This document shows positions 1,200 to 61,422 of a stretch of DNA of 64,000 bases, in pieces (position 1 is the stretch's first letter; each line of letters starts with the position of its first letter). This DNA comes from a virus. Both the position numbers and the translations under genes were made by a program. Location: IMG/VR virus record IMGVR_UViG_3300020577_003088, positions 2,842 through 66,841 of that record; one strand, 5' to 3'. Below the pieces are notes generated by a model that did not search any database, was not told the origin of the DNA, and saw only the letters and a list, made by a program, of their open reading frames with translations.

Positions 1200-1242
1200 C
1201 GCCGGGCTTGTATAGCGTGACGCATGACCTTATCATCAAGGC

Positions 1243-1419
1243 ATGATCCGTCTCGTCCGCTACTGCGTCGCTTACATCCTATGGGCGCTCGGCGTCGCCG
1301 CTAACTGGATTGGCTGGTATGGCGCCTATCGCAAGTGCATGCTGCTGTCGGCTGACGTTCAAGGCGAAGGCGACTTCGGCCCATGGGAGGCGGCGATCCG
1401 AGAGCCGCGCGATCCATGA
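1243..1419 (+). CDS. Small hydrophobic protein (58 aa)
   Basis: ATG at 1243 with TGA at 1417-1419. Hydrophobic core YILWALGVAANWIGWYG. A TGTATAGC motif lies just upstream (1208-1215). Confidence 0.25.
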   Translation: MIRLVRYCVAYILWALGVAANWIGWYGAYRKCMLLSADVQGEGDFGPWEAAIREPRDP

Positions 1420-1531
1420 TCCGCTGCACACGCATCGCGGGCTATTTCCCCTCCCGGCATGATGCCCCGCCCTTCCGGCTCGGCGTAAACTCGCTGCGTA
1501 TCCGCGTCGGCGCCGATGCCGTTGTTTTCTG

Positions 1532-1828
1532 GTGGGAGCGGTGGGTGTGACGGAGCCTCGCGTCGTCAATCGTTATCGCGGCCCTGTCCCGCAAGACGCT
1601 ATCAACATCATGAGAGGGACACCCTTCGGCAACCCGTTCAAGATGGGACGCGACGGCACGCGCGATGAGGTCTGCGACAAATACGAGGCATGGATCATGG
1701 CCGACGAGCAAGCCGATTTGCTCGCCTACGCGCGGCGCAAGTTGAAGGGGCGCGTGCTCATGTGTTGCTGTGCGCCTGCTCGCTGTCATGGGGACACGCT
1801 TCTTCGCCTTGCGAACGAGGATTTGTGA
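1532..1828 (+). CDS. DUF4326-like domain protein
   Basis: RGTPFGNPF ... LMCCCAPARCHGD signature resembles DUF4326, a family common in phages. The start is uncertain (GTG at 1532 or 1547; GGGAG lies upstream of 1547). Confidence 0.5.
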   Translation: MGAVGVTEPRVVNRYRGPVPQDAINIMRGTPFGNPFKMGRDGTRDEVCDKYEAWIMADEQADLLAYARRKLKGRVLMCCCAPARCHGDTLLRLANEDL

Positions 1829-1900
1829 ATATCCCGCATCCGATATGGACGGCGCCGCCGTCGCGTGCCACGCTCAACGCGGGTCTGATGGAGTAAGGGA

Positions 1901-2152
1901 ATGGCGGTGAAACCCCCATGGCTAGACGAGGCATGCGTTATGGCGTCGGACGGCAAGCACATGCCGCAGCCATGGCGCTACGAAGAAGGCGACACTCCCG
2001 GCTTCGCCTGCCGCCACTGCCACCGCACATGGTCAATGACAGCGCCAGGCGTCTACCGCTCCACATGGGACATCCATGGCTGGACCGGGCGCACGTCAGT
2101 CCTTACATCCGAGCAGGGCGGATCGCTCAACAATCTCGGAGGACAGCCATGA
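1901..2152 (+). CDS. Hypothetical protein (Cys/His-containing, 83 aa)
   Basis: ATG with TAAGGGA RBS. CRHCH motif. ATGA overlap with the next gene. Confidence 0.4.
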   Translation: MAVKPPWLDEACVMASDGKHMPQPWRYEEGDTPGFACRHCHRTWSMTAPGVYRSTWDIHGWTGRTSVLTSEQGGSLNNLGGQP

Positions 2153-2322
2153 TTGGACGCTTCATCGCCCGCAACAAGTGGGCTTTCTCTCTCGGTGTGG
2201 TGGCCTTCGGCTTCACCTTCACGGCGGCGATCTTCACCGGGATCGACGCCTTTCCCCTCTTGACGGCCATCCCGGTGCTGATCGGCGCCGCGATTGACCA
2301 TCTGGCGGCGGCAAAGCAATAA
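2149..2322 (+). CDS. Small membrane protein (57 aa, two hydrophobic segments)
   Basis: ATG preceded by GGAGGA. Internal start within the track ORF 1918-2322. Hydrophobic FSLGVVAFGFTFTAAIF and LLTAIPVLIGAAI. Confidence 0.4.
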   Translation: MIGRFIARNKWAFSLGVVAFGFTFTAAIFTGIDAFPLLTAIPVLIGAAIDHLAAAKQ

Positions 2323-2335
2323 GGAGACGGAGAAA

Positions 2336-2545
2336 ATGGTAGAGCTAACGGAAGAAGTTCTTGAGGCGATGTCGAGGGCTTACTGCGCGGTAGACTATGA
2401 GGATGCAAAGTCATCTCCATGGGACGATGACGAATTTGCGCAAGAACCAGAGTTCAGAGAAGCGCACTTCGGCCCTATGCGCGCCGCCGTCGCCGCGCTC
2501 TGCGCGGCGGGCTTCGATGTCGTGCCACGGGTAGCGAAGACATGA
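2336..2545 (+). CDS. Hypothetical acidic protein (69 aa)
   Basis: ATG with AAGGAGA RBS 8 nt upstream. Confidence 0.45.
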   Translation: MVELTEEVLEAMSRAYCAVDYEDAKSSPWDDDEFAQEPEFREAHFGPMRAAVAALCAAGFDVVPRVAKT

Positions 2546-5305: not shown

Positions 5306-5349
5306 GCGGCGCCGGTCGATTTGCTCCCGACCGGCGCCGCTTCATGTTC
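5306..5349. terminator. Bidirectional intrinsic terminator between convergent genes
   Basis: Perfect 13-bp stem GCGGCGCCGGTCG / CGACCGGCGCCGC with a 9-nt loop, followed by a T-rich run. It sits between the stop of the OMP gene (5286) and the stop of the minus-strand gene (5348). Confidence 0.6.
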
Positions 5350-5641
5350 ACCAGTAATAGATATGCGGACGCTTCGCCGGGGCGAAGGTCACGTCATCGA
5401 GATCGGCGTCACCCTTCGCGATGCGACGGAGTACGGCCTTTTCCTTGGCCCGGTACGGGCGGCGATGGAACGTGATGTCCCACCAGCGAGGCCACGAGCA
5501 CAGCCAGTTATAGTAGGGCTGGCGTTCGTGACGGCGGCGATCATGCCCTCCCCGGTTCGCACCAGTACGGGGGCGTTTGCGCTTGTAGTGCGCCATGTCG
5601 AAGCCTTTCGATTGAGCCTTACAACATGGCGATCTCCTCAT
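5348..5641 (-). CDS. Arg-rich basic small protein (hypothetical)
   Basis: Only minus-strand ORF in the structural block, convergent with the OMP gene. KRKRPRTGANRGGHDRRRHERQ... An alternative start at 5596 (MAHYKRK) has a GAAAGG RBS. Confidence 0.35.
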   Translation of the reverse strand: MRRSPCCKAQSKGFDMAHYKRKRPRTGANRGGHDRRRHERQPYYNWLCSWPRWWDITFHRRPYRAKEKAVLRRIAKGDADLDDVTFAPAKRPHIYYW

Positions 5642-5726
5642 GGCTGGCGCTGGCGCAACGCCAGCAATCCGCTCAACATAGCGGCCCCTTCACCCTTTGT
5701 AAACGGACGCAGCGGAGCATGACGGC

Positions 5727-5921
5727 GTGAGTGATCCCCTGCCTGTCCCGCTGCCGTCGAAGTTCGACCGCTACGCCGATATTCTGATCGAGCTATGCCT
5801 TGAGACACGCGCCAAGATTGCGAGAGTCCCGGCTGTAGAGCGCCCTGCTCTTGTCGAGATCGCCGAAGCACTCGATGCTGGCGCCGTGTTCCTGCGGGCA
5901 AGGGAGATCATGCTGAAATGA
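5727..5921 (+). CDS. Hypothetical protein
   Basis: GTG-start ORF ending in an ATGA overlap with the glycosyltransferase start. Weak support. Confidence 0.25.
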   Translation: MSDPLPVPLPSKFDRYADILIELCLETRAKIARVPAVERPALVEIAEALDAGAVFLRAREIMLK

Positions 5922-9340: not shown

Positions 9341-9793
9341 ATGACTATCGCAGACCGCAAGAACTGCTTCGGCGAAGCGGTCGCCATCACGGCGAGCGCT
9401 GCGCTTACCGACTCCATCGACCTCGGCCCGATCTCGCCCAACACGGTGCGCAATATCGGCGTCGGCGACGATCTCTACCTCTACATCATCTGCACGACGA
9501 CCGCGCAATCGGCGGGCGCCTCGACGGTGACGTTCACGCTTGAGACGGACGACAACTCGTCCTTCTCTTCGGTGACGACGCCCTACACGACGGCGGCCAT
9601 CCCGAAGGCGTCTCTGACGGCAGGGACGGAGGTCGTGAAGGTGAAGCTCCCGATCACGACGTATGAGCGCTATCTGCGCGTCAACGTCGCGGTGGCCACC
9701 GCCAACCTCACGGCTGGCGCTTTCTCGGCCTATCTGGTGCGCGACGTTCCGGCGTGGACCGGCTACGCCCGCGTCGGCGCTCCGTCCTTCTGA
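9341..9793 (+). CDS. Putative capsid decoration/cement protein
   Basis: 150 aa, Thr/Ser-rich, beta-rich character, directly after the MCP. GGAAACG RBS. Confidence 0.35.
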   Translation: MTIADRKNCFGEAVAITASAALTDSIDLGPISPNTVRNIGVGDDLYLYIICTTTAQSAGASTVTFTLETDDNSSFSSVTTPYTTAAIPKASLTAGTEVVKVKLPITTYERYLRVNVAVATANLTAGAFSAYLVRDVPAWTGYARVGAPSF

Positions 9794-9814: not shown

Positions 9815-10063
9815 ATGGCCCGGTATCGCGCGCTGGTTGAAGGCTACCTCCCCTCTCCGTATGGGATGGTCAGGGTGCTCGCCAACGAGGAGTTCGACTT
9901 CGACGGCCCGAAGGGTCGTTGGATGGAGCCCGTTGGCGCCCCCGTTGCTCAAGTAGCCAGCCTCGCGGCGCCGCCGCCAATCGTGACGGAAGTTGAGGGG
10001 GCGGGTGGAAACGACCCTGCATCCGCTCCCTCTTCTTCTCGGCGCAAACCCAAGCCGGAATGA
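9815..10063 (+). CDS. Hypothetical protein (82 aa)
   Basis: ORF in the structural block. C-terminal Pro/Gly-rich tail. Confidence 0.35.
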   Translation: MARYRALVEGYLPSPYGMVRVLANEEFDFDGPKGRWMEPVGAPVAQVASLAAPPPIVTEVEGAGGNDPASAPSSSRRKPKPE

Positions 10064-17303: not shown

Positions 17304-19190
17304 ATGCCTCAAGTTCCCGTCATTCAGGACCGTCTCGACCTCGAAGTTCCGGGTGTTCGGTCGCGTGTGCAATCAAGCCCGAACGCTTTCGGCGCCCAGA
17401 GCGCGGAAGCGCTTGGCGCCTTGGCCGCCAAGGCGGGCGGGATGGTTTCTGCATGGGACGCCAAGCAGGATGAGAACGACGCCAAGGAACTCGACAACCA
17501 GCTTTCGGCGTTGATCCGCGAACAACTCTACAACCCGGAGCAAGGCTACCTCACCACGCAACGCGGCAAGAACGCTGTGGATGGCCGCCAAGGCGCCGTG
17601 GAAGGCTTGCGCACGCGGGCTGAAGAGATCGCCTCCCGCGCGCGTTCGCGCTCGTCAGCGACGCTCTTTCGGGATGTAGCGTCCCGTCGCCTCAATGACG
17701 CGGTGACGACGATCTACCGCCACGCCGACGAGCAGAACGATGTCTATGAAGACGAGCTTTCGGACTCTCGTCTGAAGGAGTTCACGAACAACGCGGTCGC
17801 CTCCTATCAAGACCCCTCCGCCGTGCAAGCCCAGATCGCGGGCGGCATGGGCGAGATCGCCACGATTGCCCGCCGTCGCGGCTGGTCGCCAGAGCAGACG
17901 ACGGAACGCACGCGGACCTTCCAGTCCGGCGTGCTGTCGGCCACGATCCGCCGTCTTGGTCACGATGACCCGAACCAAGCCCAGCAAATCTTCGACAGCG
18001 TGCGCGGCGCCATGACGGCTGTCGATGTCTCCGAGACCGAGAACGCGCTGCGCGAGGGAACGCTGCTGGCCCGGTCGCAGGCTGAGACGGATCGCATCTT
18101 CGGGGAGTTTACCGACTATGCGGATCGTCTCGACGCAGCCCGCGAGATCGAAGACCCGTTCCTCCGCGACAAGGTGGAGGACGCCGTGGTGCAGCGCCAG
18201 GCGCGCAACGAGGCGCGCTACGCTTCGCTGAAAGGTCGCGTGTTTCAAGCCTACGCCAATGGCCGCCCCCTCTCCTCTTTGTCGGCGGAAGACCGTCTTG
18301 CGCTGACGACGGAGCCCGAGCTTGGGCAGTTCCACGCGCAAATCCAAGACGCTTACCGTTCGCGGGCGGCGTCTTACGCAAGCGGCGAGCGCGTCAGAAG
18401 CGACGGGCCGATCTATCACATGATGTTGCGCATGGCTGGGTCGGACAGAAACGCCTTTCGCGCGGCCATGGAAGACCCCAATGTTCTCGCGGGCATGTCT
18501 CAAGGCGACATCACAGAGCTTTTGAAGATGCTCAATAGTCAAGAAGAGGGCGGCGGCGTCACGGCGAGCAACCAAATCTTTCGAGCCGTCGCCGACGTGG
18601 CCGAGCCCATGCTTCGGCCCTACGGCGTCGATCTTCACGCCAAGCCGGACGATCCTGTGCGGCGTGCTTTCGAGTATTCGCTCTCGCGCGAAATTGAAGC
18701 GCATGTAAGAGATAGCGGCGGGCGCATGCCGAATCAGCAACAGCTAAACGGCATCATCGGACGGGCCATCGTGAACATGGACATAGACTCCGTGCGCGGT
18801 TTGCCGAGCAGCATCACCGCCCCTAGAGAAGCGCGCAACGCTGATGGGCGAAGACTTGCGACGGTCGGTGGCATTCGTCAAGGCGACAACACAATCGGGG
18901 TGCCTTACGACATCATCCCCGTTGAAGAGCGTGACGCCATTCAACGGCGCCTTCGCGCTATCCGCGGACGCCAACCGAACCGCGAAGAGGTCGTGCGTGA
19001 ATACGCCGGGAACTTGCGCGGACAAGGCACCTTTGTCGCGTTCGATGACATTCCGGCGGATGCACGCAACTTCATCATCCGAACCATTGGGCTCGGTGAT
19101 AGGCCGACAGAAAAGAACGCGCGCGCTGAATACGATGCGCGTGTGGAAGGCGTTTATAGGGCGCACATGGAACGGACTGGCACGCGATGA
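17304..19190 (+). CDS. Internal core protein, gp15-like (putative)
   Basis: 628 aa, mostly helical. Its stop overlaps the start of the giant ORF (ATGA). Its position parallels T7 gp15. Confidence 0.45.
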   Translation: MPQVPVIQDRLDLEVPGVRSRVQSSPNAFGAQSAEALGALAAKAGGMVSAWDAKQDENDAKELDNQLSALIREQLYNPEQGYLTTQRGKNAVDGRQGAVEGLRTRAEEIASRARSRSSATLFRDVASRRLNDAVTTIYRHADEQNDVYEDELSDSRLKEFTNNAVASYQDPSAVQAQIAGGMGEIATIARRRGWSPEQTTERTRTFQSGVLSATIRRLGHDDPNQAQQIFDSVRGAMTAVDVSETENALREGTLLARSQAETDRIFGEFTDYADRLDAAREIEDPFLRDKVEDAVVQRQARNEARYASLKGRVFQAYANGRPLSSLSAEDRLALTTEPELGQFHAQIQDAYRSRAASYASGERVRSDGPIYHMMLRMAGSDRNAFRAAMEDPNVLAGMSQGDITELLKMLNSQEEGGGVTASNQIFRAVADVAEPMLRPYGVDLHAKPDDPVRRAFEYSLSREIEAHVRDSGGRMPNQQQLNGIIGRAIVNMDIDSVRGLPSSITAPREARNADGRRLATVGGIRQGDNTIGVPYDIIPVEERDAIQRRLRAIRGRQPNREEVVREYAGNLRGQGTFVAFDDIPADARNFIIRTIGLGDRPTEKNARAEYDARVEGVYRAHMERTGTR

Positions 19191-22100
19191 CCCCGCAAGA
19201 AGAGGAAGAACTGCGCCGGTCCATAGAGGCGTCGCAGAAAAGACCGGGGCTTTCTGCGCTTGAGCAGCGCGCCTTTGGCGAGCAGCGAGCGCCTGAAGAA
19301 GTTGCGCAAGATCACGAAATCGCCAGCCAGGTCGGCGTGCCCGCCCCTGCCGTTCCTTCGCAACGTGAGACCTATCAACGTCTGGCGCGCACGCTCGACG
19401 CTTCCCGCCGCACGCGCGAAACGCCGCGCCTGCAAGCATGGCTTGCCGAGGGCGACAACTACGCCCTTGCGCAAAACGACCTCGATCTTCTGGGCCGGAT
19501 TGAGACCTATGCGCAGTCCATGCGCGATGCGTTCGATCCGAAGAGCGGACTGTCGGCGGGCGAGCGCGTCTCGCGCGTCCTCTTCCCGGTCAACCGCCAG
19601 ACCACCGTTCCCGAAGACGTGCAGCGCGGCATCGACCAGACAATCTCCAGCTATCGCGCTGGCGAAGCGCAGATGCGGATTGCGCGTCGTCTCGAAGACG
19701 AACTCACCGGCCTGAACGACCGGGGAGAAATGAGCGTTGACGTTGGTCTTTATCGAACCATGCAAGAGCGCGACCGTTTGCGTCGCGAGGGATTGCAGGG
19801 CGACGCTGGCGAAGTCGTCGAGACCATTCCGAATTTCCTCGGCGTATTCCCCGCAATGGCGCAGGGCGTAATCAACACGGAAACTGATCTCTTCAAAGAC
19901 TATGAACGTCAGTTCCGAGAAGAGTATGCGAAAGACCCGGCAGGCACCGTCGTCGGCGCCGCAGCGACAGCGCCGTTGCAAATGCTGATCGGCGTCGGCG
20001 GCATTCCCGCAGGCTTCATTGAGGGCAAGAACCGTTACACCTACCGTCTCGAAGCGGGCTCCGCCTATGAGACCATGGTCGGTATGAAGACCGTGGACGG
20101 ACAACCGATCCGCCCGGAGATCGCCGCCCGCGCCGCGCGCGACTACGGCATGATCGCGGCGGGCATCGAAAATATGGACTTTGTGCTGATCGGGTCGCTG
20201 GTGAAGCATACGCTTGAATCGGCTGGCCTGAAACTCTCAAGCCCGATGGCCAAGCGCATGGTCATGGCTATGGCGCTGCGTCGCTATGGCGTGGAAGTGC
20301 TGAAGCAAGGGGCCTCTGAAGGCGTTGAAGAAGGTAGCCAAGCCCTCGCGGAAATCCTAATGCGCGAGCGCGCCAAGGCTGACGACGGTCGTCGTTTCGA
20401 GGCGCTTGACCTTGGCCAGGCCGCAGCGGAAATCGGCCAATCCGTCAAGATCGGCGCCATCTTCGGCGGTGCTGTCGGCGGCGTTGCTTCCATCCCTTCC
20501 CTTGCGCTTGATCTCGACGCTGTGGCCGCGACAGAGCGCAATCAAGAAGCCTTCCGCCAATTCGTCGAACGCGCGCAATCGGCGCAACTCGCAAGGCTTT
20601 CGCCGGAGGCGATGGAGTCGGCGCTTAACGCGGTCACGGCGAACACGCCTATTGAGGATGTCTCCATCAATGTAGACGCTTTCACGGAATACTTCCAATC
20701 CAAGGGGCTCGACCCCATGCGCGCGGCGGCGGAACTTGGCGTGACGCCCGAGCAATATGACGCCGCCTATAAGGCGCATGGAGAACTGCGCTTCAAAACC
20801 GGCACGGTGCAGCAACGCATGATCCCCACGCCGCACTATGCGGCGCTGGCGGATCATATCCGTGTCGGCGACAGTCTGACGCCCGCCGAAATGAAGATGC
20901 AAACGGCGATCTTCCAGAACACTTTGGAAACGGCGCTGAAGAAGACGGCCTCGACGGCGGAAACGATTGAGGCCGCACGCAAGGTCGGCGACATCATGCG
21001 CGAGAAGTTCGCGCGTGCTGCGGAAGAAGGCGGCCCGAGGCCGGAATATGCTGATCGCGTAGCGTCTCTGTGGCAGGCGCTCTTTCAGACATTGGCCACG
21101 CACATCCAGCAAAGTCCCGAGCTTTCCGCTCGCCTCGGCACAAACGCAGAGGAAATCTTCAGCAAGTTCGGCTTCGACGTGCGCGGCGTGGGGCGTGCGA
21201 ACGATCCGGTAGATTTCCGTACTGTGCGCGGCGACACGACCGAAAACCCTTTCCGCTGGAACGATGAAGCGCCGCAGCCGCGTGAAGACGCCTACGATGA
21301 TCTTGGCGATGGCCTTGTCGAGCAACCGAACTATCTCGACCGTGCGCGCCAGGCGATGGACGAAATGGGCGATGCGGCGGAGCCGACGCCTGGTCGCGAA
21401 GTTCTTGAAGGCATTCCTGACGACCGCTTGATCGAACCGCTGGCGCTCGCCATGGCGGCCAAGCTGCGTGGCGAGTTCGATGCACAACTGGTGATGGATG
21501 AAATCCTCGGCCAAGCCGAGGACATGCTCTATGTCGAGCAGGCCGCCGAGGAGCGCGCCAGCGAGATCATCGACGAAGATGAAATGGCCGACGACGCAGA
21601 AGCATCGCTGGCCGACGACGAAGAGCTTCGCGCCGAGGTCATGGATCGGCTGGAAAATCTGCCGCCGGATGTGCCCTTCAACGCCATCCCTGACGGCGTG
21701 ATCGTCGGCGTCGCCTTCCCCAAAGGCGAGGCGTTGCTGACCCTGCGAAAGCCGACAGAGGACGGCGAGATCGCCACAAGCTGGGGACAGACGCTCTACT
21801 ATACGGCGGGCGAGCACGTCATTCTTGGCGAGGCTGAAGGCGATCCCCGGCCTGTTCGTCGCGACATTTTTGAAGCGACATATGAGCAGGCCGAAGACGG
21901 ACGCTGGCGCAAACGCCATGACGTTCCTGTCGGTTTCTGGACGGCGGAAGAAGATGGCGTCATCAACGCCATCGAAGGACCGGAGCCCTACAAGGCGGGC
22001 GATGTCATCCTGATCGGCGTTCTCGGCGAAATGTGGCCGACGAAGGCGGCTTCTTTCGAGGCGAACAATACGATTGTTGTGGAGGAAGACTACGAGGACC

Positions 22101-41589: not shown

Positions 41590-41814
41590 TTAAGCCGCGA
41601 CGCGAAAGCCGTCGCGCTCCAAGCCGTCGATGATGTCGGCGACGTAGCGGGTCTCGCACGGAATGCCGCCAGCCCACATGAGGCCGGGGTCATATCGAAG
41701 GTGGCGATCCGCCCAATCCTGGGCGTCGTCCGTGCAGAAGAAGAGCACGCAGAGCGAGGGATCGCGCTGGACGACGACCTCCGGTGCGGGCGGGAAAGGG
41801 CGGGGGCGGGTCAT
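41590..41814 (-). CDS. Hypothetical protein (74 aa)
   Basis: Internal ATG (MTRPRPFPP...) with a GGAGA RBS. The longer track ORF upstream is Arg-rich and overlaps the neighbouring gene. Confidence 0.35.
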   Translation of the reverse strand: MTRPRPFPPAPEVVVQRDPSLCVLFFCTDDAQDWADRHLRYDPGLMWAGGIPCETRYVADIIDGLERDGFRVAA

Positions 41815-42340: not shown

Positions 42341-42372
42341 TGTATAGCACACTGCTCAACATTCCACAACAA
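42341..42372 (-). promoter_or_regulatory. Promoter-like TTGTGG-N17-TATACA (minus strand) containing the GCTATACA motif
   Basis: Minus-strand reading TTGTGGaatgttgagcagtgtgcTATACA lies 20-30 nt upstream of an RBS and ATG. Confidence 0.35.
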
Positions 42373-42400
42373 CAAAAAGCCCGGCGGTGAGGCCGGGCTT
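42364..42400 (-). terminator. Intrinsic terminator (minus strand) after the DUF932 gene
   Basis: AAGCCCGGC-ggtgag-GCCGGGCTT stem. On the minus strand it is followed by TTTTTGTTGTT. Confidence 0.55.
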
Positions 42401-42422
42401 CTCGTCAGTCGGTGGAGATCGC

Positions 42423-43289
42423 TTACGCCGCCTTCAGCTTCGCCATTTCGTCGGCGAGAACCCAGAGCGCCTGATTGATGCGACGGTCTTGGTCGATGGA
42501 CTGGACCGGGCGGGTCGAGCGGTAGGACACGCGGTTATTGATGTCGCGCGTTTCGTAGGGAATGCCGCCGCGCACGATGTTCTCCTGCACGCGATTGAAC
42601 GTCGTCCAGAGATCGGCGGAGCGGTCGCCAATACGGCGCGTGCGGAGCAGGCGATCCGGGTCCGGGGCGCCTTGGTTTTCGTCGAAGCGCAGCGCAGACG
42701 CAGCGCGGGCAAAGGCCGTTTCTTCCGGCGCGGAGAGCATGATCGACTGCATCGTCATCGCGCGGTCGATGGCCATGGGCGCGTCATTGAGCACGCGATA
42801 GGCGCCTTCGATGACTTGGCCCATGACATCGCCCTTGTGCGGGACGCGGACGCCCTCGACGGTTTGCTCCGGCACCGTGAGACCGTTGAGGCACACGAGG
42901 CGGAAGATGCCCGCCGCCATCGCGTAGGCGGACGTGCCGTCATGCGAGTTAAGCAGCGTGACTTCGGGGATCAGATCGCCGACCTGGCGGGCGGCGACTT
43001 CGTGCGTGATCGGACGCAGGCGGATCAAGTGCTTGGTGAAGCCGCGCTTGTCGGCAGACTTCGAGCCGCCCTGACGGACCTCCATGGGCACAAGACCGGC
43101 GTTGCGCAGGCCGCCGAGAAGATCGCGGGTCGGGATATAGGTGTAGCGCTCGGAGCGGCTTTCGTGGCGGCTCTCGGCGAAGACGCTCGGCGCACGCGCC
43201 GCGATCTCGTCGTCGGAGAGACCTTGCGAAGTCACGGCGCGCAGGATGACGCCGCCGCGACCGAACCGGGTTTCGCGAGATTGGAACAT
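42423..43289 (-). CDS. DUF932-family protein (phage/ICE-associated)
   Basis: 288 aa. YTYIPTRDLL and LLNSHDGTSAY resemble the DUF932 family as remembered. GAAGGAGG RBS. Confidence 0.6.
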   Translation of the reverse strand: MFQSRETRFGRGGVILRAVTSQGLSDDEIAARAPSVFAESRHESRSERYTYIPTRDLLGGLRNAGLVPMEVRQGGSKSADKRGFTKHLIRLRPITHEVAARQVGDLIPEVTLLNSHDGTSAYAMAAGIFRLVCLNGLTVPEQTVEGVRVPHKGDVMGQVIEGAYRVLNDAPMAIDRAMTMQSIMLSAPEETAFARAASALRFDENQGAPDPDRLLRTRRIGDRSADLWTTFNRVQENIVRGGIPYETRDINNRVSYRSTRPVQSIDQDRRINQALWVLADEMAKLKAA

Positions 43290-43317: not shown

Positions 43318-43348
43318 TGTATAGCATGACGCTAAACACATTGCAACA
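43318..43348 (-). promoter_or_regulatory. Promoter-like TTGCAA-N17-TATACA (minus strand) containing the GCTATACA motif
   Basis: Minus-strand reading TTGCAAtgtgtttagcgtcatgcTATACA lies upstream of the DUF932 RBS. A palindrome TAGC-atgac-GCTA is also present. Confidence 0.35.
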
Positions 43349-43349: not shown

Positions 43350-43384
43350 GCAAAGAAAAAGCCCCGCCGGGTGAGGGCGGGGCT
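43350..43384 (-). terminator. Intrinsic terminator (minus strand) after the membrane-protein gene
   Basis: AGCCCCGCC-gggtgag-GGCGGGGCT stem with an A-run on the plus strand (T-run on minus). Same architecture as the 42364-42400 module. Confidence 0.5.
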
Positions 43385-43398: not shown

Positions 43399-44184
43399 TC
43401 ACGAAGCGGCTTTTGTTCGACGGTCTTGACCGAAGAGCTTGCCGATCTTGCCGGTGCTTTCGCCGTTTGCGATGGCCTTGTTACGGGCTCGCGTCTCGGC
43501 GCCTTTCTGCGCGGCGAGCTTTCGCTTCTCGCGCAACGCATCAGCTTCCGCCGCCAACCGCATCGCTTCACGCTCTGCGGGGGTGATCGGCGTCGCCATC
43601 CTGAAGCGCGGGGTCTGCATCACAAGGATGTTGATGACGACCGCCGCGACCGCCGCCCAGAAATCGAAGCGCGCTTTCGTCGGCGGCTCGATGTCGGCTT
43701 GCGCATAGATGCGCTCCTGTTCGCCGTAGTCGTAGCTGTCCGCTTTCTTGAGCGCGAGTTGATAGGCTGGGGAGCCTTCGGGGTTCTCGGCGGAAGGGGC
43801 GTAGACCTCCCATCGCTTCAGTTGTTCCCCGTACTCGATGGCGCATGCCAGGTTCCAGATCGGGCCGTGAGGCACGAAGAGGAGGGCGAGAGCCACGACC
43901 TTCATGGCGAACACTTGCTTGCGAACTTGCGGGCGTTCGTCGTCTTGCTTGGTCGCCGCCGCCCACATGCCTACGAAGGAGAGGACGGCGCACGCCAGCG
44001 AGATCGCTACGTCTTGAACGGCGGCGAGGGGAAGGCCAAGGAGCTTGTCAGCTTGCGTCGCCGTGGCGAACACATACCAACCGCCTCGGCTTTCGATGGC
44101 CGCGATCATCAGGATCGTAAGAAGGGCGACGCCAACACGTTGAACGGTGACGCCGACCGGCGTTTGAGATTTCGTTTCTGTCAT
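43399..44184 (-). CDS. Membrane protein (4 TM) with charged C-terminal tail
   Basis: Hydrophobic segments throughout the N-terminal 190 aa. C-terminal Lys/Arg/Ala-rich helical tail. Confidence 0.5.
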   Translation of the reverse strand: MTETKSQTPVGVTVQRVGVALLTILMIAAIESRGGWYVFATATQADKLLGLPLAAVQDVAISLACAVLSFVGMWAAATKQDDERPQVRKQVFAMKVVALALLFVPHGPIWNLACAIEYGEQLKRWEVYAPSAENPEGSPAYQLALKKADSYDYGEQERIYAQADIEPPTKARFDFWAAVAAVVINILVMQTPRFRMATPITPAEREAMRLAAEADALREKRKLAAQKGAETRARNKAIANGESTGKIGKLFGQDRRTKAAS

Positions 44185-44305
44185 TCGGGTTCCTTCCGAA
44201 TGCGGCCCGGCGACTGCGAGGCGGACCTAGAATGTCAAAGAGCGTCCCGGCGCAGCCACCGGGACGGTCTTGTTAGCACAGCGCTCAACAAAACGCAAGC
44301 GGTTT

Positions 44306-45521: not shown

Positions 45522-46262
45522 TCAGCTATTCTCCACGGCCCAATCGGGCATGCGCGTCGGATCGGCGGCAGGCGATGGCGCATCCGCCGCCATCTTGCGC
45601 AGGCTGTCTTCTTCCTCCATTTCCCGGCGGATGTTGTAGATCGTCTGCTGCGAGCAGTTGAATTGCTGCGCGAGTTTCGTCGTGCTGTGCCCTGGCTGAC
45701 GCAGCGCCGCCTTGATTTGCTCACGCACATGCGGCGGCAACCCGCGCCCCTGATAGGGAAGGGGCTTTTCCGCGTCGGGGCTTTCGCCGCTTTCCGCCGC
45801 CATGCGCTCCTTCGCGAGGCGCACGAGGATTTGCTTCTGCGTCGAGTAGGTGATGCCGAAGCGCTGGAAAATCTTTCCCGAACCGTACCCCGCCTCGTCC
45901 ATACGGAACACTTCCTCTTGGACCCAGCGCGGCGCCTGCTGGCCGCGCGTGCTCGTCCATTTGCGTTCGGCGGGCGGGATGTCGGGATCGCCGTTCCAGC
46001 CATCGGCCTGCACGGGAGCCGACGCGGGCTTCGGCAGGAATGGTTGCACCGCCGCCTGCTGTCGCTCTTCTTCCTCCTTGGCCAGGCGCTCGACCTCGGA
46101 GACCGCGCGATCCTCGATATTGAGCCGCAGGCTACGCATGGCTTCCTCCCAGAGGGGAAGGGCCTCGATAGGCGTGGCGTCCATCGCTGCGACCAGCGCG
46201 TCTTCGCTGACGCCCAAATTGCGCATCACGAGGAACCTCGCGACGACTTCTTTCGTATTCAT
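45522..46262 (-). CDS. DNA-binding protein with two HTH motifs
   Basis: Internal ATG (MNTKEVVARF...) with a perfect AAGGAGG RBS. The longer upstream frame overlaps the next gene. HTH-like GKIFQRFGITYSTQKQILVRL and STTKLAQQFNCSQQTIYNIRR. Confidence 0.5.
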   Translation of the reverse strand: MNTKEVVARFLVMRNLGVSEDALVAAMDATPIEALPLWEEAMRSLRLNIEDRAVSEVERLAKEEEERQQAAVQPFLPKPASAPVQADGWNGDPDIPPAERKWTSTRGQQAPRWVQEEVFRMDEAGYGSGKIFQRFGITYSTQKQILVRLAKERMAAESGESPDAEKPLPYQGRGLPPHVREQIKAALRQPGHSTTKLAQQFNCSQQTIYNIRREMEEEDSLRKMAADAPSPAADPTRMPDWAVENS

Positions 46263-50670: not shown

Positions 50671-50719
50671 CGCGTCGCTCCGAGTTCCACATCGCCAAGA
50701 TGGGCGTTTGCGCATCGAC

Positions 50720-50772
50720 CGTCAAGGCTCGCCTGACGCGCGATTGCTCATTTTCTCGACAATCGGTAGAGT
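50720..50772 (+). promoter_or_regulatory. Switch region: palindrome CGTCA-N9-TGACG plus promoter TTGCTC-N17-TAGAGT for the Cro-like gene
   Basis: Palindrome at 50720-50738. The -35/-10 pair (50744-50772) ends 9 nt before ATG 50782, implying a near-leaderless mRNA. Confidence 0.35.
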
Positions 50773-50781
50773 GATTCGCGC

Positions 50782-50997
50782 ATGACAGCCGCGACGAAAG
50801 ACCTGACGCCGAGAGACGCCATCCGCCGCTTACAGCGGATCGACGTGACGGCGAAGGAGTGGTGCGAGCGCGCCGAGGTCAGCGTCTCCACATGGCAGCG
50901 CTGGCAACGCGGGGCGCATGAACCGCGAGCCTCGACGCGGCGTGTCCTGGCGATGGCGCTGTGCGCCATGGAAAGGGAAAGGGGCAGGGATGATTGA
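50782..50997 (+). CDS. Cro/XRE-family HTH regulator
   Basis: 71 aa. HTH AKEWCERAEVSVSTWQRWQRG. First gene of the rightward unit, divergent from the leftward operon. Confidence 0.55.
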   Translation: MTAATKDLTPRDAIRRLQRIDVTAKEWCERAEVSVSTWQRWQRGAHEPRASTRRVLAMALCAMERERGRDD

Positions 50998-51724: not shown

Positions 51725-52044
51725 GGGCGCCGCCGCCGCCTTTCATTTGACGCGAATCGAGAAGCCGGAAAACTGAAGCGGCCCCGGAGAAGGAACCTCC
51801 GAGGCCGCTTCCGCGACGAGCGGGGACGCATCAAATCGCAACGCCAGTCTGGTGAGGAGCCCGGCGTGAACCAAGTATATAGGGCGCTTCGCCCTTCCGA
51901 TACAAGTCCTTGTGTGCGCCGCCGCGCCGCACCGCCCGCAGCCCGCCGGGAACCCGGCGCCGCCGGGATCGCCGCCTATTCTGCCGTGATGTTCTCGGCG
52001 TCAGCGGCATCGCTTTACATAATAAACATTACGCGAGTCGACGC

Positions 52045-57222: not shown

Positions 57223-58665
57223 TTACGCCGCCTGCCTTTGACGGTCGGTGCGGTAGACGGCGCGTACGCGGCGGTCGCCGACGAGTTCAAGGATCGCGTC
57301 GCGGTGGTCGAGATCGCGGTTCTGATCTTCGACCGCCTTCAGCGCCCGCAGAATGTCGTCGCGTTGAAGGCCGCCCATGGTATTGGCCTTGAGATCGCGT
57401 TGCAGCGCAAACGAGGTCGCCTGCTGCACCACGCCCGCCACCAGCGCGCCATTGACCAAGTGACGCAGCGCAAGGGTTTCGTCGCCGTCTTCCGTCTCCA
57501 CGCGGTAGAGCGCGCGCTTGGCGTGGAAGAGTTCGACGGCGGAGAACGCCGCGACATCCTCGATGTCTTCCCCGTCCGCCAGCGGCACGCCACGAAGGTT
57601 CATGGCGAAGATCGAATGGCTGGACGTGAGGTCAGGCCGCTCAATCTTGATCTTGCGGTCGATCCGTCCGTCGCGCACGATGGCCGGGTCGAGCGTGTCG
57701 GGCCGGTTGGTGGCGAGGATCGTCAGCGCGCCGGTCTCTTCGAGGCCGTCCATTTCCGTCAGAAACGCCGGAACGATGGTGCGCTCCATGTCCGAGGAAA
57801 TCGACGATCCGCGACGGCCCAGCAACGAGTCGGCTTCGTCGATGAAGATGACCGCAGGCGCCCCCGTCTCTTTCTTGAAGCGTCGGGCGCGCGCAAAGAG
57901 ATCGCGGATCGACGCCTCCGCCACGCCGACGAAGCGGTCAAGGAGTTCCGGCCCCTTCACATAGAGGAAGCCATCGCTCGTCCCCTTGTCAGCGTGCAGG
58001 CTCGCCAACGCCGTCGCCGCCGCCTTGCCGAGCATGGTCTTGCCGCAGCCGGGAGGGCCATAGAGCAGGATGCCCTTGGCGGGCTTCTTGCCGTAGTGTG
58101 AGAAGATCGCCGGGTTCCGATGCGGCAGTTCGACGGCCTCGATCATCGCGGCCTTGGCGTCTTGCAGCCCGCCGATGTCGTTCCACGAGACATTGGTCTC
58201 TTCGCGCACGACGTAGGCTTGCTGCTGTTTGGGCAGCTTGCGGGCGGCAATGATGTTGCCTTCGACGATCACGCGGTCGCCCGCTTCCAGCTTGAGGCCG
58301 CCGGAGAAAATGACTACCGGAGCGCCATCGCTGCGGATTTCGACGAAGCGCTTGTCGATGACGCTGGAGATCGTCTGGATGGTCCCGCCGAGATCGAAGT
58401 CGATCAGATCGACGATCTGCATGTTGAGCACAAGCACCCGCGAGCCGATCTTCAGCTTGAGGCCGTTGGCAGGCTCGACCTGGGCCATGGCCCCGCCGAC
58501 GCAGACGATAGGCTTGGGTTTCAACTCGACGACGACGCCGAATGATTTCGGCGATTCAGACACGCGGTCGATGAAGTCTTGCTGTTGCGCGAGCGCTTCT
58601 TGCGCCTGCTCAAGCGCCGACTTGAGCGCTTCGACTTGCCGGAGGATTTCTGCGTCCTTGCCCAT
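57223..58665 (-). CDS. AAA+ ATPase of the classical (FtsH/proteasomal ARC/PAN) clade with N-terminal coiled coil and OB-like domains
   Basis: Walker A GILLYGPPGCGKT, Walker B VIFIDEADS, second region of homology ILATNRPDTLDPAIVRDGRIDRKIKIERPD. N-terminal coiled coil and two beta-rich segments give an ARC/Mpa/PAN-like architecture. Confidence 0.75.
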   Translation of the reverse strand: MGKDAEILRQVEALKSALEQAQEALAQQQDFIDRVSESPKSFGVVVELKPKPIVCVGGAMAQVEPANGLKLKIGSRVLVLNMQIVDLIDFDLGGTIQTISSVIDKRFVEIRSDGAPVVIFSGGLKLEAGDRVIVEGNIIAARKLPKQQQAYVVREETNVSWNDIGGLQDAKAAMIEAVELPHRNPAIFSHYGKKPAKGILLYGPPGCGKTMLGKAAATALASLHADKGTSDGFLYVKGPELLDRFVGVAEASIRDLFARARRFKKETGAPAVIFIDEADSLLGRRGSSISSDMERTIVPAFLTEMDGLEETGALTILATNRPDTLDPAIVRDGRIDRKIKIERPDLTSSHSIFAMNLRGVPLADGEDIEDVAAFSAVELFHAKRALYRVETEDGDETLALRHLVNGALVAGVVQQATSFALQRDLKANTMGGLQRDDILRALKAVEDQNRDLDHRDAILELVGDRRVRAVYRTDRQRQAA

Positions 58666-58707
58666 GGTGTGATCTTGTCCCTGCACACGGTCAATCCGCC
58701 GGGATCA

Positions 58708-58740
58708 TGTATAGCGTATTGCTATCACCGCAACCCCTGT
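58708..58740 (-). promoter_or_regulatory. GCTATACA motif plus palindrome ATAGC-N5-GCTAT upstream of the AAA+ ATPase gene
   Basis: Plus strand reads catGTATAGCgtattGCTATcacc. The -10-like TATACA on the minus strand lies ~45 nt upstream of the ATPase ATG. Confidence 0.3.
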
Positions 58741-58748
58741 TGGGCGAA

Positions 58749-58973
58749 TTATTTCCAGTAGCGCGGATTCCAGTATTGAGCGACGATCTCCCGCCGGGCG
58801 TCGGTTACGGCCTCGACCTCGGCATAAGCGACATGGGACAGTCCCATATACGCGCGCCAGACTTCATCTGCCGCCGGGCGGTTGGCGAAGACCCGTTCGC
58901 GTTCTTCACCCTCCGGGCTGGCGGTTCGGACGACATAGGTTGTCTCCGTCCGGCTGCGCTCCATATTGCTCAT
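58749..58973 (-). CDS. Hypothetical protein, first gene of the second leftward operon
   Basis: Track ORF 58749-59045. Start chosen at MSNMERS (58973) because GCTATACATG lies immediately upstream. The alternative start is 59045. Confidence 0.3.
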   Translation of the reverse strand: MSNMERSRTETTYVVRTASPEGEERERVFANRPAADEVWRAYMGLSHVAYAEVEAVTDARREIVAQYWNPRYWK

Positions 58974-58979
58974 CGGCGG

Positions 58980-59068
58980 CATGTATAGCAGAAGGCGAAC
59001 AAAGGCAATGGCCGTGGCGTCGCCGTGCGGCGGGATGTTGCGCAAATCATTGAACCGACCTATCTAAT
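58980..59068. promoter_or_regulatory. Second divergent switch region: GCTATACATG (minus) and TTGCGC-N17-TATCTA (plus)
   Basis: Minus-strand TATACA is followed within 8 nt by ATG codons, suggesting a leaderless transcript. The plus-strand promoter-like pair ends 8 nt before ATG 59074. Confidence 0.3.
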
Positions 59069-59073
59069 TTTGC

Positions 59074-59307
59074 ATGACTCGCCCGAAACGCCTGACCGGC
59101 GCCCAACTGCGCAAGGAACGCGAACGTCTCGACATGACGGGCGAGGCGTTTGGCGAGTACCTTGCCGAACTGACCGGAAACCCCCGCGCCTATACGCGGG
59201 CGGAGGTCTCGAATTGGGAGACCGAGGCCCGCCCCTTCCCGGCGCATCTGGAACTGGCGCTCGTCCGCAGGCAACTCGAAGAGTGCCGGAAGAAGGCAAG
59301 GCGCTAA
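59074..59307 (+). CDS. Cro/XRE-family HTH regulator
   Basis: 77 aa. LTGAQLRKERERLDMTGEAFGEYLA ... YTRAEVSNWE fits an XRE HTH. Confidence 0.55.
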   Translation: MTRPKRLTGAQLRKERERLDMTGEAFGEYLAELTGNPRAYTRAEVSNWETEARPFPAHLELALVRRQLEECRKKARR

Positions 59308-59345
59308 CGTCTCCTCAATACTTTTGCGGCTAGAGTGCGCGCTCA

Positions 59346-59558
59346 ATGGAGCGGCGCATGTTCACGATCTGGAGTAGGGAGAAGGGCTTCGGGGAGAGGT
59401 TCGTCCACCTATTCGAGGCGATGGAGAGAGCGCGAGCGTTGGCCGCCGACTGGCCCGACATCCGGTTCCACGTCATGCAGGCCCACGGTTGGGCGATGAG
59501 CACCCCCTCTGGCGCCGTTATGGTAGTAGAAGGTCGGGCTGCTTCGTTTGCCGCCTGA
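59346..59558 (+). CDS. Hypothetical protein (70 aa)
   Basis: ORF in the rightward unit. Confidence 0.35.
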   Translation: MERRMFTIWSREKGFGERFVHLFEAMERARALAADWPDIRFHVMQAHGWAMSTPSGAVMVVEGRAASFAA

Positions 59559-59577
59559 CGGCTCCGAGGCGCGCGTG

Positions 59578-59952
59578 ATGGTCGATCTCCCTCCGATGGA
59601 TATAGGATCGCTGGTGGAGTTTTTCGTGCTCCTCGCCGGGGTGCTTGGCGTCTGGTTCACCGTCCGCAACGACATCGCCAACATGAAGGCGCGGCAGGCG
59701 GCGCAAGATTTGCTGCTGAAGCAGCACGCGGAGAAGCTGGAAATTCACGGCGCCTTTGAGCCGCGCTTGCGGCAAGTAGAAAGCCACGGCGAGAAGGTTG
59801 AGCAGATCGCCCCCCTCGCCGAGCGGATGTCGTCTTTCGAGCGACATACCCTTGAAACCCTTTCAGGCATGCGCGATCAGATGCGGGAATTGGCGCAGTC
59901 CGTGCGCGACCTGACATCGGCCTTCGTCGGCAAAGCCCGGCAGATCGGCTAG
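59578..59952 (+). CDS. Membrane-anchored coiled-coil protein
   Basis: Internal ATG (MVDLPP...). TM segment LVEFFVLLAGVLGVWFTV followed by a helical/coiled region. Confidence 0.4.
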   Translation: MVDLPPMDIGSLVEFFVLLAGVLGVWFTVRNDIANMKARQAAQDLLLKQHAEKLEIHGAFEPRLRQVESHGEKVEQIAPLAERMSSFERHTLETLSGMRDQMRELAQSVRDLTSAFVGKARQIG

Positions 59953-59958
59953 CTGGGC

Positions 59959-60561
59959 ATGGCCAAAGACCCCCGCCTTTCCATCGGCGCGAACGGCGGG
60001 CCGCCGCTGGATGAGGCGCCCGCAAAGCCTCCGACACGGGTCATGGACCCGGCGCTTGTCCGTCTGGCGCATCTGGGCTGCAAGATGGTCGCCCTCCTCA
60101 TGGAAGAACAAGACCCGGCCAAGGTGCTCATCAAGCGCCAGGGAGGCCGTGCGCTCATCACCCGCAAGGTCTGGCTCTACGCGATGCAGCGATTTGTGCC
60201 GCAATGGATGCTGGCCCAGATGACCGGCCTTGATCGCGGGACGGTCGCCCAAGATCAGCGCGATGTCGCCGTGTGGATGGAGAACAAGGGCCTGATCCGC
60301 TCGCTTGTGGAGGCGGTGATCGACGCCACCGAAGTTCTCCCGGCTTTTGTCGAAGACGGCGCCGAGTTCGTCGAGGAGTGCCTGCTTGAGCTATCGGTCA
60401 AGCGAGTGCGGGCGGCGGCGGCGCTGCTGGAGGAGAGCGCCCCGCCCCCTCCCGCCGTGGTCACGCTCATTCGTGAGGGACGGCTTACGCCGCAACGGGC
60501 GTGCGCCCTCTACGGCGTGAAGCCCGCGCAAGTCGAAAGATGGGTTAGGATGTCGGTCTGA
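59959..60561 (+). CDS. Hypothetical protein with C-terminal HTH-like segment
   Basis: 200 aa. C-terminal REGRLTPQRACALYGVKPAQVERWV. Confidence 0.45.
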   Translation: MAKDPRLSIGANGGPPLDEAPAKPPTRVMDPALVRLAHLGCKMVALLMEEQDPAKVLIKRQGGRALITRKVWLYAMQRFVPQWMLAQMTGLDRGTVAQDQRDVAVWMENKGLIRSLVEAVIDATEVLPAFVEDGAEFVEECLLELSVKRVRAAAALLEESAPPPPAVVTLIREGRLTPQRACALYGVKPAQVERWVRMSV

Positions 60562-61397
60562 TGGCTGAAGATGCACCCTCTCCAATGGCTGCGGCCATGT
60601 TCTGGCGCCAGCAGCAGGAGCGCGCCAAGCGCCGCGACAGTCGTCCGAAGCCTGCGGCGGCTGCAAGCCAACCCTCTGGCGGTCCGGGCGGGGCGAGCGC
60701 TGCGATGGTGCGCCAAATCCGTCGCGTCAATGGTGTTGACGAGAGAAAGCCGCAGCCGCTCTCGACGGAAAATCGTTCGCGCCTGCTGGGCGCCATATGG
60801 GATTTCGAGGCCACGTCAAACGAGCCAGAGAACTCCCCCGCCCGGCGTAACGCCGTGGCGCGTTTGCGTCAGTTCGCCGAAGCGCATCCCGACAACGAAC
60901 TGGCCCGTAATGCGCTGGAGTATGACCGCATCCGCCGGACGCACATGCTGCGGGACAGCAGCGGCCAAACAAAAGCGGAGCGTGATGCGACGGTGGGCGA
61001 GAACGCTCGCCTGAACTGGCTGGAAAACCGCTCCGCCGATACGCTAGAAGGCTACGCTCAACGCAATCCTGACGGCCTCCTCGCCAGCGTTGCGGGAGAT
61101 CGCGGTTGGTTCGGCGACGCTAAGGAGCGTGACCGAGTGGCGCGTGGACGGCCTACGTCTGGCCTGTCGGCTACCGAGCAAGCGGCGCTTGAGCAACCCG
61201 CGCCCGACTGGCTGATGCGTGCAGCGCGCGGCAATCCCTATGGCGTTGACGCCTCGCCGCCGCCGTCGCGCGCGCCGACTGTGGACCCCAACACGCTGGA
61301 GGTCCGCCCCTCTCTGACGCGGTATGAAGACGGAAGGCCAGTCGTTGACCGGGACCGCGCTTACATGGCTCGTCGATTGTTTCGACCGAAGCCTTGA
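60561..61397 (+). CDS. Hypothetical protein (278 aa)
   Basis: Coupled start (TGATG). Confidence 0.45.
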   Translation: MAEDAPSPMAAAMFWRQQQERAKRRDSRPKPAAAASQPSGGPGGASAAMVRQIRRVNGVDERKPQPLSTENRSRLLGAIWDFEATSNEPENSPARRNAVARLRQFAEAHPDNELARNALEYDRIRRTHMLRDSSGQTKAERDATVGENARLNWLENRSADTLEGYAQRNPDGLLASVAGDRGWFGDAKERDRVARGRPTSGLSATEQAALEQPAPDWLMRAARGNPYGVDASPPPSRAPTVDPNTLEVRPSLTRYEDGRPVVDRDRAYMARRLFRPKP

Positions 61398-61422
61398 TGG
61401 ATATAGCGACGCGCTATACATG
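61391..61422 (+). promoter_or_regulatory. Promoter-like element with palindrome TATAGCG-acg-CGCTATA and GCTATACA motif
   Basis: Palindrome with 7-bp arms at 61403-61419. TTGATG lies upstream. The downstream gene has a GAGGAAG RBS and an ATG at 61443. Confidence 0.35.

Follow-up and report, generated by a model that had tools for sequence, protein, structure and literature searches.

A recurrent intergenic 8-mer in a novel podovirus genome marks predicted host-type promoters and a candidate phage-specific operator

Why should one short sequence recur, letter for letter, between the genes of a phage and nowhere else in its genome? The question is raised by a 64,000-nucleotide (nt) stretch of viral DNA from IMG/VR record IMGVR_UViG_3300020577_003088 (the whole stretch is called the window below; record position = window position + 2841), in which the 8-mer GCTATACA occurs exactly six times, five copies lying on the minus strand and one on the plus strand. 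A sequence-only reading had taken the 8-mer for a -10-like promoter element to which a dimeric regulator binds. That reading is partly supported by the present analysis, most of its substance being right and some of its details wrong: the sites are very probably promoters read by the host RNA polymerase (RNAP), and they are probably overlapped by an operator for a phage-specific regulator.

The motif observation itself was confirmed as real and well above chance. A genome search with background statistics gave six copies against 0.26 expected from dinucleotide shuffles, none of the 100 shuffles reaching six, and against 0.87 under a stricter order-3 Markov model; because of the latter expectation, GCTATACA is by count alone one among about a dozen enriched 8-mers. 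What sets it apart is where its copies lie, and not their number. All six copies are intergenic, as had been claimed, while intergenic DNA makes up 8.1% of the window (0.081^6 ≃ 3 x 10^-7), and GCTATACA is the sole A+T-containing 8-mer with all of its copies in non-coding DNA. The JGI and Logan gene calls, which are independent, also put six of six between genes, and the remaining 2.8 kb of the circular genome beyond the window holds no GCTATACA. One-mismatch variants are at chance level (16 matches, the six exact ones included, versus 13.5 expected), so the element is unusually exact. Five of the six positions had been read exactly; the first was off by one (1209-1216, not 1208-1215).

The surroundings of the 8-mer have the anatomy of a promoter. 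With the sites aligned on the 8-mer and the spacing counted from TTGnnn to the G of the 8-mer, a TTG is present 12-17 nt upstream of all six copies (background 8.5% per site, p ≃ 4 x 10^-7). Five copies are indeed oriented towards a downstream gene, with start codons 8-42 nt ahead, mostly with a ribosome binding site. The uniform distance of 17 bp after TTGnnn that had been described does not hold: the distances at sites 1-6 are 17, 15, 15, 12, 13 and 13 nt and fall into two spacing classes, class A (sites 2 and 3 and a degenerate seventh site; 15, 15 and 15 nt) and class B (sites 4, 5 and 6; 12, 13 and 13 nt). At a 17-nt spacer the class A hexamer is TATACA (sites 2 and 3) or TAACAA (site 7), which is the register of the CTATAT of Sinorhizobium meliloti. 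In class B the spacer is 16-17 nt and the hexamer, shifted downstream by two bases, is TACATG; all three class B sites read GCTATACATG. The earlier assignment of CTATAC as a -10-like element stands as a promoter reading, given the TTG at every site, two terminators and the RpoD consensus, but at sites 4-6 the hexamer at canonical spacing is another one. A -35 TTG hexamer 16-18 nt from a -10 hexamer that has T at -12 and A at -11 is found at sites 2-7 and at three sites of a sister phage described below (N17 there); site 1, at 19 nt, is the exception.

The sites match the published consensus of alphaproteobacterial RpoD promoters, which is TTGaCgS/GCtANAWC for Caulobacter (PMC8144410, PMC13004042) and CTTGAC-N17-CTATAT for S. 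meliloti (PMC2873474). An Escherichia coli-style sigma-70 scan recovered none of the motif sites, T at -7 being compulsory in it. An intrinsic terminator stands directly before each of sites 2 and 3, which therefore belong to promoter-gene-terminator cassettes; genes 43399-44184 and 42423-43289 each have a motif promoter upstream and a hairpin with a T-run downstream, as in a moron. Three other recognition sequences were set against the motif: the LexA box GTTC-N7-GTTC and the CtrA box TTAA-N7-TTAA have no match there, and the RpoH-type -10 CYTATNT matches it poorly. The coordinates of the sites and of the associated features are collected in the table.

Coordinates and sequence of the motif sites, the neighbouring terminators, the homologous sites of the sister phage and the candidate regulator genes (window coordinates; aa, amino acids; ORF, open reading frame; HTH, helix-turn-helix).
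Feature	Class	Position (strand)	Sequence or type	Context
Site 1		1209..1239 (-)	TTGATG (1234-1239), 17 nt, GCTATACA (1209-1216)	Leftward; antisense to 25-aa hydrophobic ORF (1122-1199) and 3' end of large terminase gene
Site 2	A	42341..42369 (-)	TTGTGG (42364-42369), aatgtt, GAGC, agtgt, GCTATACA (42341-42348)	20 nt to ATG of gene 41811-42320; ribosome binding site GGAGG
Intrinsic terminator		42372..42405 (-)	GC hairpin + T-run	Ends DUF932 gene; directly upstream of site 2
Site 3	A	43318..43346 (-)	TTGCAA (43341-43346), tgtgtt, TAGC, gtcat, GCTATACA (43318-43325)	Exact dyad TAGC-N5-GCTA 43322-43334; 28 nt to ATG of DUF932 gene 42423-43289
Intrinsic terminator		43360..43384 (-)	GC hairpin + T-run	Ends gene 43399-44184; directly upstream of site 3
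Site 7 (degenerate)	A geometry	44270..44298 (-)	TTGCGT (44293-44298), tttgtt, GAGC, gctgt, GCTAACAA (44270-44277)	Precedes gene 43399-44184
Site 4	B	58708..58733 (-)	TTGCGG (58728-58733), tga, TAGC, aatac, GCTATACAtg (8-mer 58708-58715)	Dyad ATAGC-N5-GCTAT 58711-58725; 42 nt to ATG of AAA+ ATPase gene 57223-58665
Site 5	B	58982..59008 (-)	TTGCCT (59003-59008), ttgt, TCGC, cttct, GCTATACAtg (8-mer 58982-58989)	ccgccg, then ATG at 58973, 8 nt away
Site 6	B	61394..61422 (+)	TTGATG (61394-61399), ga, TATAGC, gacgc, GCTATACAtg (8-mer 61413-61420)	TTGATG overlaps stop codon of gene 60585-61397; 17-bp perfect palindrome 61402-61418; 22 nt to ATG of gene 61443-61715, which is followed by SPFH/Band-7 gene 61678-62529
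L125 homologue of site 4			TTGCGC-agtt-GAGC-aagac-GCTCTACATC	
L125 homologue of site 5			TTGCAT-aggt-TAGC-gccac-GCTCTACATG	
L125 homologue of site 6			TTGCGG-cgtt-GAGC-caagc-GCTCTACATG	
Candidate regulator 1		59074..59307 (+)	77-aa XRE/Cro-like HTH protein	Divergent from sites 4 and 5
Candidate regulator 2		50782..50997 (+)	71-aa HTH protein	At second divergent control region, 50671-50781

Since the 8-mer stands in two registers relative to the -35 element, the register of RNAP is not all that fixes it; of a pure -10 element one would not expect all eight bases to persist in either register, so something else constrains it. The two spacing classes suggest that the 8-mer is conserved for more than its -10 function. 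A likely source of the constraint is the symmetry around it. All six sites have the dinucleotide GC 5 nt before the 8-mer (p ≃ 3 x 10^-6), and TAGC occupies the dyad position at three of them (p ≃ 9 x 10^-8). Of exact TAGC-N5-GCTA the window has three copies (0.21 expected), each on a motif site (3, 4 and 6), where the dyad overlaps the core promoter elements, as does a Cro/CI-type operator of about 14-18 bp. The symmetry reaches 6+6 at site 6 (TATAGC-gacgc-GCTATA, the perfect 17-bp palindrome) and 5+5 at site 4, with a weaker dyad at the other sites (3-4 of 6 bases in the left half). All three of the inverted repeats that had been noted are real; the one at site 4 (ATAGC-gtatt-GCTAT) was placed exactly, and the ones at sites 6 (TATAGCG-acg-CGCTATA, 61402-61418) and 3 (TAGC-atgac-GCTA, 43322-43334) are each shifted by one from where they had been put. 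The geometry, 6-bp half-sites spaced 11 bp from centre to centre, is that of operators bound by HTH dimers, for example in lambdoid phages. On single-strand folding only site 6 was more stable than its shuffles (7-bp stem, 3-nt loop, z = -3.6), while the nine other sites (five exact, the degenerate site 7 and three of the sister phage) were no better, so the symmetry is read as a protein-binding dyad and not as a hairpin. Invariance and dyad together would then reflect an operator for a phage-encoded dimeric regulator, a prediction that we hold to be probable with some reserve.

A sister phage offers a view of the same promoters in another sequence context. The 77-aa HTH protein encoded at 59074, when searched against 5.8 billion proteins, has one relative (73% identity), carried by a 14.4-kb Logan contig (SRR15706662; L125) that is syntenic with window 53.9-64 kb and continues to the terminase genes, with proteins 43-91% identical to those of the window; the ATPase search gave no further close relative. 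GCTATACA is absent from the L125 contig, which has exactly three copies of GCTCTACA (0.13 expected), homologous to sites 4, 5 and 6. It reads GCTCTACAT at all three homologous positions, and the left half is GAGC at two of them. Aligned pair by pair with their counterparts in the window, the L125 sites keep the TTG, the AGC of the left half and GCTnTACAT as conserved islands amid diverged spacers. Position 4 of the 8-mer has changed from A to C at three of three sites; the changed base is -13 in the TACATG register, outside the core hexamer, and the spacer is 17 nt at each of the three. At two of the sites the palindrome is restored as GAGC-N5-GCTC. The cargo downstream of the site-6 promoter differs, and the promoter itself is kept. 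Such a pattern is to be expected of a phage-specific operator superimposed on a conserved promoter of host type. The concerted variant, GCTCTACAT with GAGC-N5-GCTC, together with the restriction of TAGC-N5-GCTA to motif sites, supports the earlier proposal that a dimeric regulator binds the promoters.

We propose that GCTATACA marks the -10 region of six promoters, and GCTAACAA that of a degenerate seventh, all of which would be read by the host housekeeping polymerase; the use of the alphaproteobacterial RpoD holoenzyme is what we infer from the consensus. The promoters would drive accessory and non-structural units: three promoter-gene(-terminator) cassettes including the DUF932 gene, the AAA+ ATPase operon, a small leaderless gene, and a unit of a small membrane protein and the SPFH protein. 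The 8-mer would be invariant because it combines two signals, the -10 hexamer and the promoter-proximal half of a 17-bp dyad operator whose ideal form is TATAGC-N5-GCTATA. A phage-encoded dimeric DNA-binding protein bound there would block the -10 and the spacer and turn off the whole set together; with a full dyad at the DUF932, ATPase and SPFH promoters and a weaker one elsewhere, repression would be graded. Since the site covers the spacer and the -10, the regulator is most simply a repressor, and repression seems the better guess than activation. The 'early' timing assigned to the set by the sequence-only reading is plausible from gene content (accessory and anti-defence-type genes with their own terminators).

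Several observations speak against this picture. The left half is poor at three of the six sites and varies within the genome (TAGC three times, GAGC twice, TCGC and ATGC), and the -35 hexamers are weak beyond TTG. Site 1 fits badly, with a gap of 17 nt from TTG to the 8-mer (to TATACA it is 19 nt), and it faces no gene. The match of the sites to the RpoD consensus of Caulobacter and S. meliloti is a comparison by analogy. L125 is the only relative across the collections searched, so that its concerted change is a single evolutionary comparison: the putative operator differs at three of three sites, in one relative. GAGC left halves also occur here, at sites 2 and 7; for both reasons the 'compensation' of TAGC to GAGC is suggestive only. 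Both candidate regulators are weak HTH_31 or PHROG regulator matches that permit no assignment; the earlier link of the promoters to these two Cro-like proteins is a guess. An AlphaFold2 model of a 200-aa HTH protein was unusable, with a predicted local distance difference test score (pLDDT) of 54.

Some of these points are what one would expect if the sites were plain strong host-type promoters with no dedicated regulator, their identity coming from extended -10 selection or from promoter duplication and the dyads being by-products. A GCTA-type -10 is the norm for alphaproteobacterial RpoD; there are other promoter-like sites in the window with GCTA or GCT starts (GCTATGTT at about 5675, GCTAACAA at 44270 and GCTTTACAT at 52012); sites 2, 3 and 7 share an extra upstream TGTT-kAGC, like duplicated cassettes; and the good left half-site is missing at three sites. 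It is hard, however, to see in this way why the 8-bp identity extends in six of six sites over degenerate and non-consensus positions with one-mismatch variants at chance, unlike the usual variation of sigma-70 -10 elements, why the 8-mer is kept in two registers relative to TTG, why TAGC-N5-GCTA is exclusive to motif sites, and why L125 changed the same base at all three of its sites, the conserved tracts of 8-10 bp being too short for gene conversion. We regard promoters of this plain kind as an unlikely explanation, if one to be taken seriously.

Invariance within a genome and a concerted single-base switch between sister phages are also known from phage-RNAP and phage-sigma promoters, and a phage-encoded specificity factor (sigma-like, a sigma appropriator or an activator) that recognises GCT(A/C)TACAT would define a phage-specific temporal class. 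The weakness of the -35 beyond TTG would suit such a factor, and conserved proteins with a C-terminal HTH and of unassigned function are encoded nearby (200 aa, 59959-60561; 246 aa, 45522-46262). No scan, though, gave an RNAP, a sigma-70 region 2/4 or a known appropriator domain, the host RpoD already explains the anatomy (the TTG spacing, the TA-containing hexamer and the distance to the ribosome binding site), and a single-subunit RNAP promoter would show far more conservation beyond the 8-10-mer; we give this explanation little credence. If it were true that such a factor co-evolves with its promoters, this lineage of RNAP-less, T7-like-structured podoviruses of Alphaproteobacteria would have a promoter class of its own, served by the core enzyme of the host. 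It is very improbable that the inverted repeats act as nucleic-acid hairpins, be it as N4-type single-stranded DNA hairpin promoters or as RNA processing or termination signals. The stem of site 6 is much more stable than shuffles (z = -3.6) and the giant 5559-aa virion protein recalls the injected RNAP of N4, but the nine other sites have stems of 4-5 bp with 5-nt loops that are no better than shuffles, the domains of the giant protein (LPD22, GNAT and Zeta-toxin) include no polymerase, Rfam is empty, and transcription is predicted to start downstream of the dyad. The arrangement that we favour, as a probable one, is a set of sigma-70 promoters, each overlapped by a 17-bp dyad to which a dimeric regulator specific to the phage would bind as its operator.

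If there is such a regulator, the 77-aa XRE-like protein is the first candidate for it, in our judgement. Its L125 orthologue, 73% identical, has substitutions in and around the HTH; other proteins may differ likewise from their L125 orthologues. The motif is absent from the promoter of its own gene (TTGCGC 59038-59043, N17, TATCTA 59061-59066). The control region next to the second candidate has, leftward, a TTGACGG that is a perfect Caulobacter-type -35 and, rightward, TTGCTC-N17-TAGAGT within the palindrome CGATTG-N13-CAATCG, which precedes the 71-aa HTH gene. Pfam, PHROGs and NCBIfam gave no RNAP or sigma domain in nearly all of the regulatory-region proteins and the 5559-aa protein (several smaller structural proteins being outside the scan), and no CI-type (S24 peptidase) repressor or integrase among the proteins scanned. 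PDB sequence searches for likeness to RNAP or sigma were uninformative, no unassigned ORF of RNAP size is present in the genome, and Rfam gave no matches.

Individual sites have features of their own. Read on the plus strand, the DNA of site 1 is TTGTAT(1208-1213)-N17-TATCAT(1231-1236)-N6-ATG(1243), and no minus-strand terminator was found downstream of the site; it may serve as a promoter for antisense RNA, or else as an operator half-site that covers the -35 of a leaderless promoter directed rightward. The 25-aa ORF opposite site 1 (1122-1199, plus strand; also called by JGI) is strongly hydrophobic (MLIPAIVLGIVLIVSLAIGGVFSQD), has a GAGGAG ribosome binding site and stands directly 3' of the large terminase gene; a promoter antisense to it recalls the arrangement of type I toxin/antisense RNA pairs. 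For site 5 the ATG first chosen, 45 nt away, is in the wrong frame; the ATG at 58973 is in the frame with coding G+C periodicity, and the site fits a leaderless or near-leaderless start of the 71-74-aa gene 58749-58973. The same geometry of -10-N6/7-ATG with no Shine-Dalgarno sequence recurs (window 59038-59076, 58971-58989 and 1208-1245; L125 9418-9432), a sign that the mRNAs of the XRE-like gene (59074), the 74-aa gene (58973), a 58-aa gene (1243) and one L125 gene may be leaderless. Between site 6 and the ATG at 61443 there is a hairpin, GGGCTTC-agag-GAAGCCC (61424-61441, plus strand), that would sequester the ribosome binding site (AGAGGAAG); with an extra copy of GAAGCC at 61388-61393, an alternative pairing is possible in read-through transcripts.

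Related sequences and other signals occur elsewhere in the window. GAGC-agggc-GCTCTACA at 5834-5854 (minus strand), an L125-type dyad with the 8-mer variant, is found once in this genome, with no TTG -35 and inside a 64-aa JGI-called ORF (5727-5921); its chance probability is about 0.05 given ten one-mismatch matches, and it may be a relic or an extra operator. A lone minus-strand gene at 5348-5596 (82 aa), inside the plus-strand structural module, is served by a class A-like promoter, TTTACA-N15-GCTATGTT (about 5669-5705, minus strand), and has a hairpin at 5306-5340, so that the region 5348-5705 looks like another moron-like insert. GCTTTACATA at 52012-52021 (plus strand) precedes the DnaB helicase gene by 24 nt and shows yet another base, the third, at position 4 of the GCTnTACAT core; a clear -35 or dyad is absent. 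A strong terminator-like hairpin (11 bp, nine G-C pairs) with a T-run is found at 41128-41154 (plus strand), inside a minus-strand gene block.

The genome that carries these sites is a circular 66,764-bp metagenomic phage contig (JGI 3300033065, Ga0364479_10174) that contains the window and is closed by a 77-bp terminal overlap. The window has a G+C content of 63%. Its plus strand encodes from 203 to 39064 the large terminase, a T7-type head-tail connector, a capsid/tail module and the 5559-aa virion protein, and between 39 and 64 kb there are many small ORFs in four blocks of alternating strand; RecT, DnaB and a replication-initiator-like HTH protein are also encoded. The 5559-aa ORF (19187-35866, plus strand) occupies the position of the T7 internal virion protein. 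Pfam finds in it LPD22 (large polyvalent protein domain) together with GNAT acetyltransferase and Zeta-toxin/AAA_33 kinase domains, but no polymerase. The protein, whose size is unusual in a podovirus of 67 kb, is probably a 'polyvalent' effector that is injected. Megablast against the phage database returned no close relative of the window, and the best match of the portal protein there is 49% identical. Protein-guided scans of viral contigs, and one of metagenome contigs with the AAA+ ATPase, a query from too broad a family, gave only distant AAA+ and DUF932 homologues; the DUF932 homologues (<=61% identity) sit in unrelated elements, where the motif is absent. Other contigs with identical proteins are 99.99-100% identical to the window and therefore uninformative for comparison. 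The phage is an uncultured podovirus of a novel lineage without close relatives. Because the relatives of its portal and DUF932 proteins are mostly in alphaproteobacterial genomes and metagenome-assembled genomes (MAGs; Xanthobacteraceae, Reyranella/Enhydrobacter, Hyphomicrobiales and Asaia), its host is likely to be an alphaproteobacterium. Two other DUF932-carrying phage contigs (L095, 1566-5626; L098, 5370-9416) have runs of 10-14 small genes nearly all separated by a GC-rich hairpin and a T-run, the hairpins being directly followed by GTGGAGG and ATG in a strikingly regular gene-hairpin-gene array.

For this lineage the sites would give a usable transcription map of seven promoters, two terminators and several probable leaderless genes, in which the accessory genes for the DUF932, AAA+ ATPase and SPFH proteins appear under one shared control. 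They also yield a testable operator code, A or C at position 4 of the 8-mer being paired with T or G in the left half, that could help to find the regulator. The motif would illustrate on a small scale how a single short sequence can act both as an operator half-site and, in two registers, as a -10.

Set beside known systems, the sites share with alphaproteobacterial RpoD promoters a TTG at -35, a -10 beginning GCTA or CTATA, a G+C-rich context and independence of T at -7. In six of seven sites GCTA follows TTGnnn after 12-15 nt, within the published range, and class A fits xTTGxx-N17-CTATAc exactly. Host promoters are degenerate, whereas the six phage sites share all eight bases, including the non-consensus final C and A, and their -35 is poor beyond TTG. 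A T7-like single-subunit RNAP promoter was rejected, with the RNAP domain absent from the scanned proteins and an identity of only 8-10 bp against near-identical sequences of about 20 bp; an N4-type virion-RNAP hairpin promoter was rejected likewise, the hairpin being present only at site 6 and the giant virion protein having no polymerase domain.

With the Cro/CI operators of lambdoid phages the sites have in common a 17-bp dyad with 6-bp half-sites that overlaps both the spacer and the -10 in promoters of early type, and a small XRE/Cro-like HTH gene divergent beside two sites (4 and 5); in the one comparison of sister phages the putative operator sequence also differs while the architecture is kept. 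They differ in having no tandem OR1-3/OL1-3 arrays, the sites being dispersed over six loci that include moron-like cassettes; half of the phage's putative operator sites have a single good half-site. Sites 2, 3 and the degenerate 7 form cassettes in series that resemble prophage morons, a gene with its own sigma-70 promoter and intrinsic terminator. Morons are usually independently regulated, whereas these cassettes share the invariant motif and the dyad, which implies common control.

A comparable arrangement is found at the DUF932 gene of a Xanthobacteraceae prophage (L100/L101/L004): a terminator, TTGACG, and a dyad TAGGGC-N5-GCCCTA with its right half over the -10 CCTATAA, the promoter reading TTGACG-ccc-TAGGGC-N5-GCCCTATAA. 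The dyad sequence is another one, a second dyad lies over the -35, the HK97-type virion module is unrelated, and no proteins beyond DUF932 are common to the phage and the prophage. The prophage, in the MAG GCA_035295845.1, has two near-identical promoter-operators, TAGGGC-ttgac-GCCCTAGGGC-N5-GCCCTAT(A/T)A, at 9350-9420 and 9890-9960, with dyads over both the -35 and the -10, and one of the two precedes the DUF932 gene. The predicted promoter-operator architecture recurs in this prophage with a different dyad. The general picture is unchanged by these sites, promoter-operator overlap and phage-specific operator variants being textbook phage regulation; the feature is a new example of a well-known phage regulatory element, useful for annotating the lineage.

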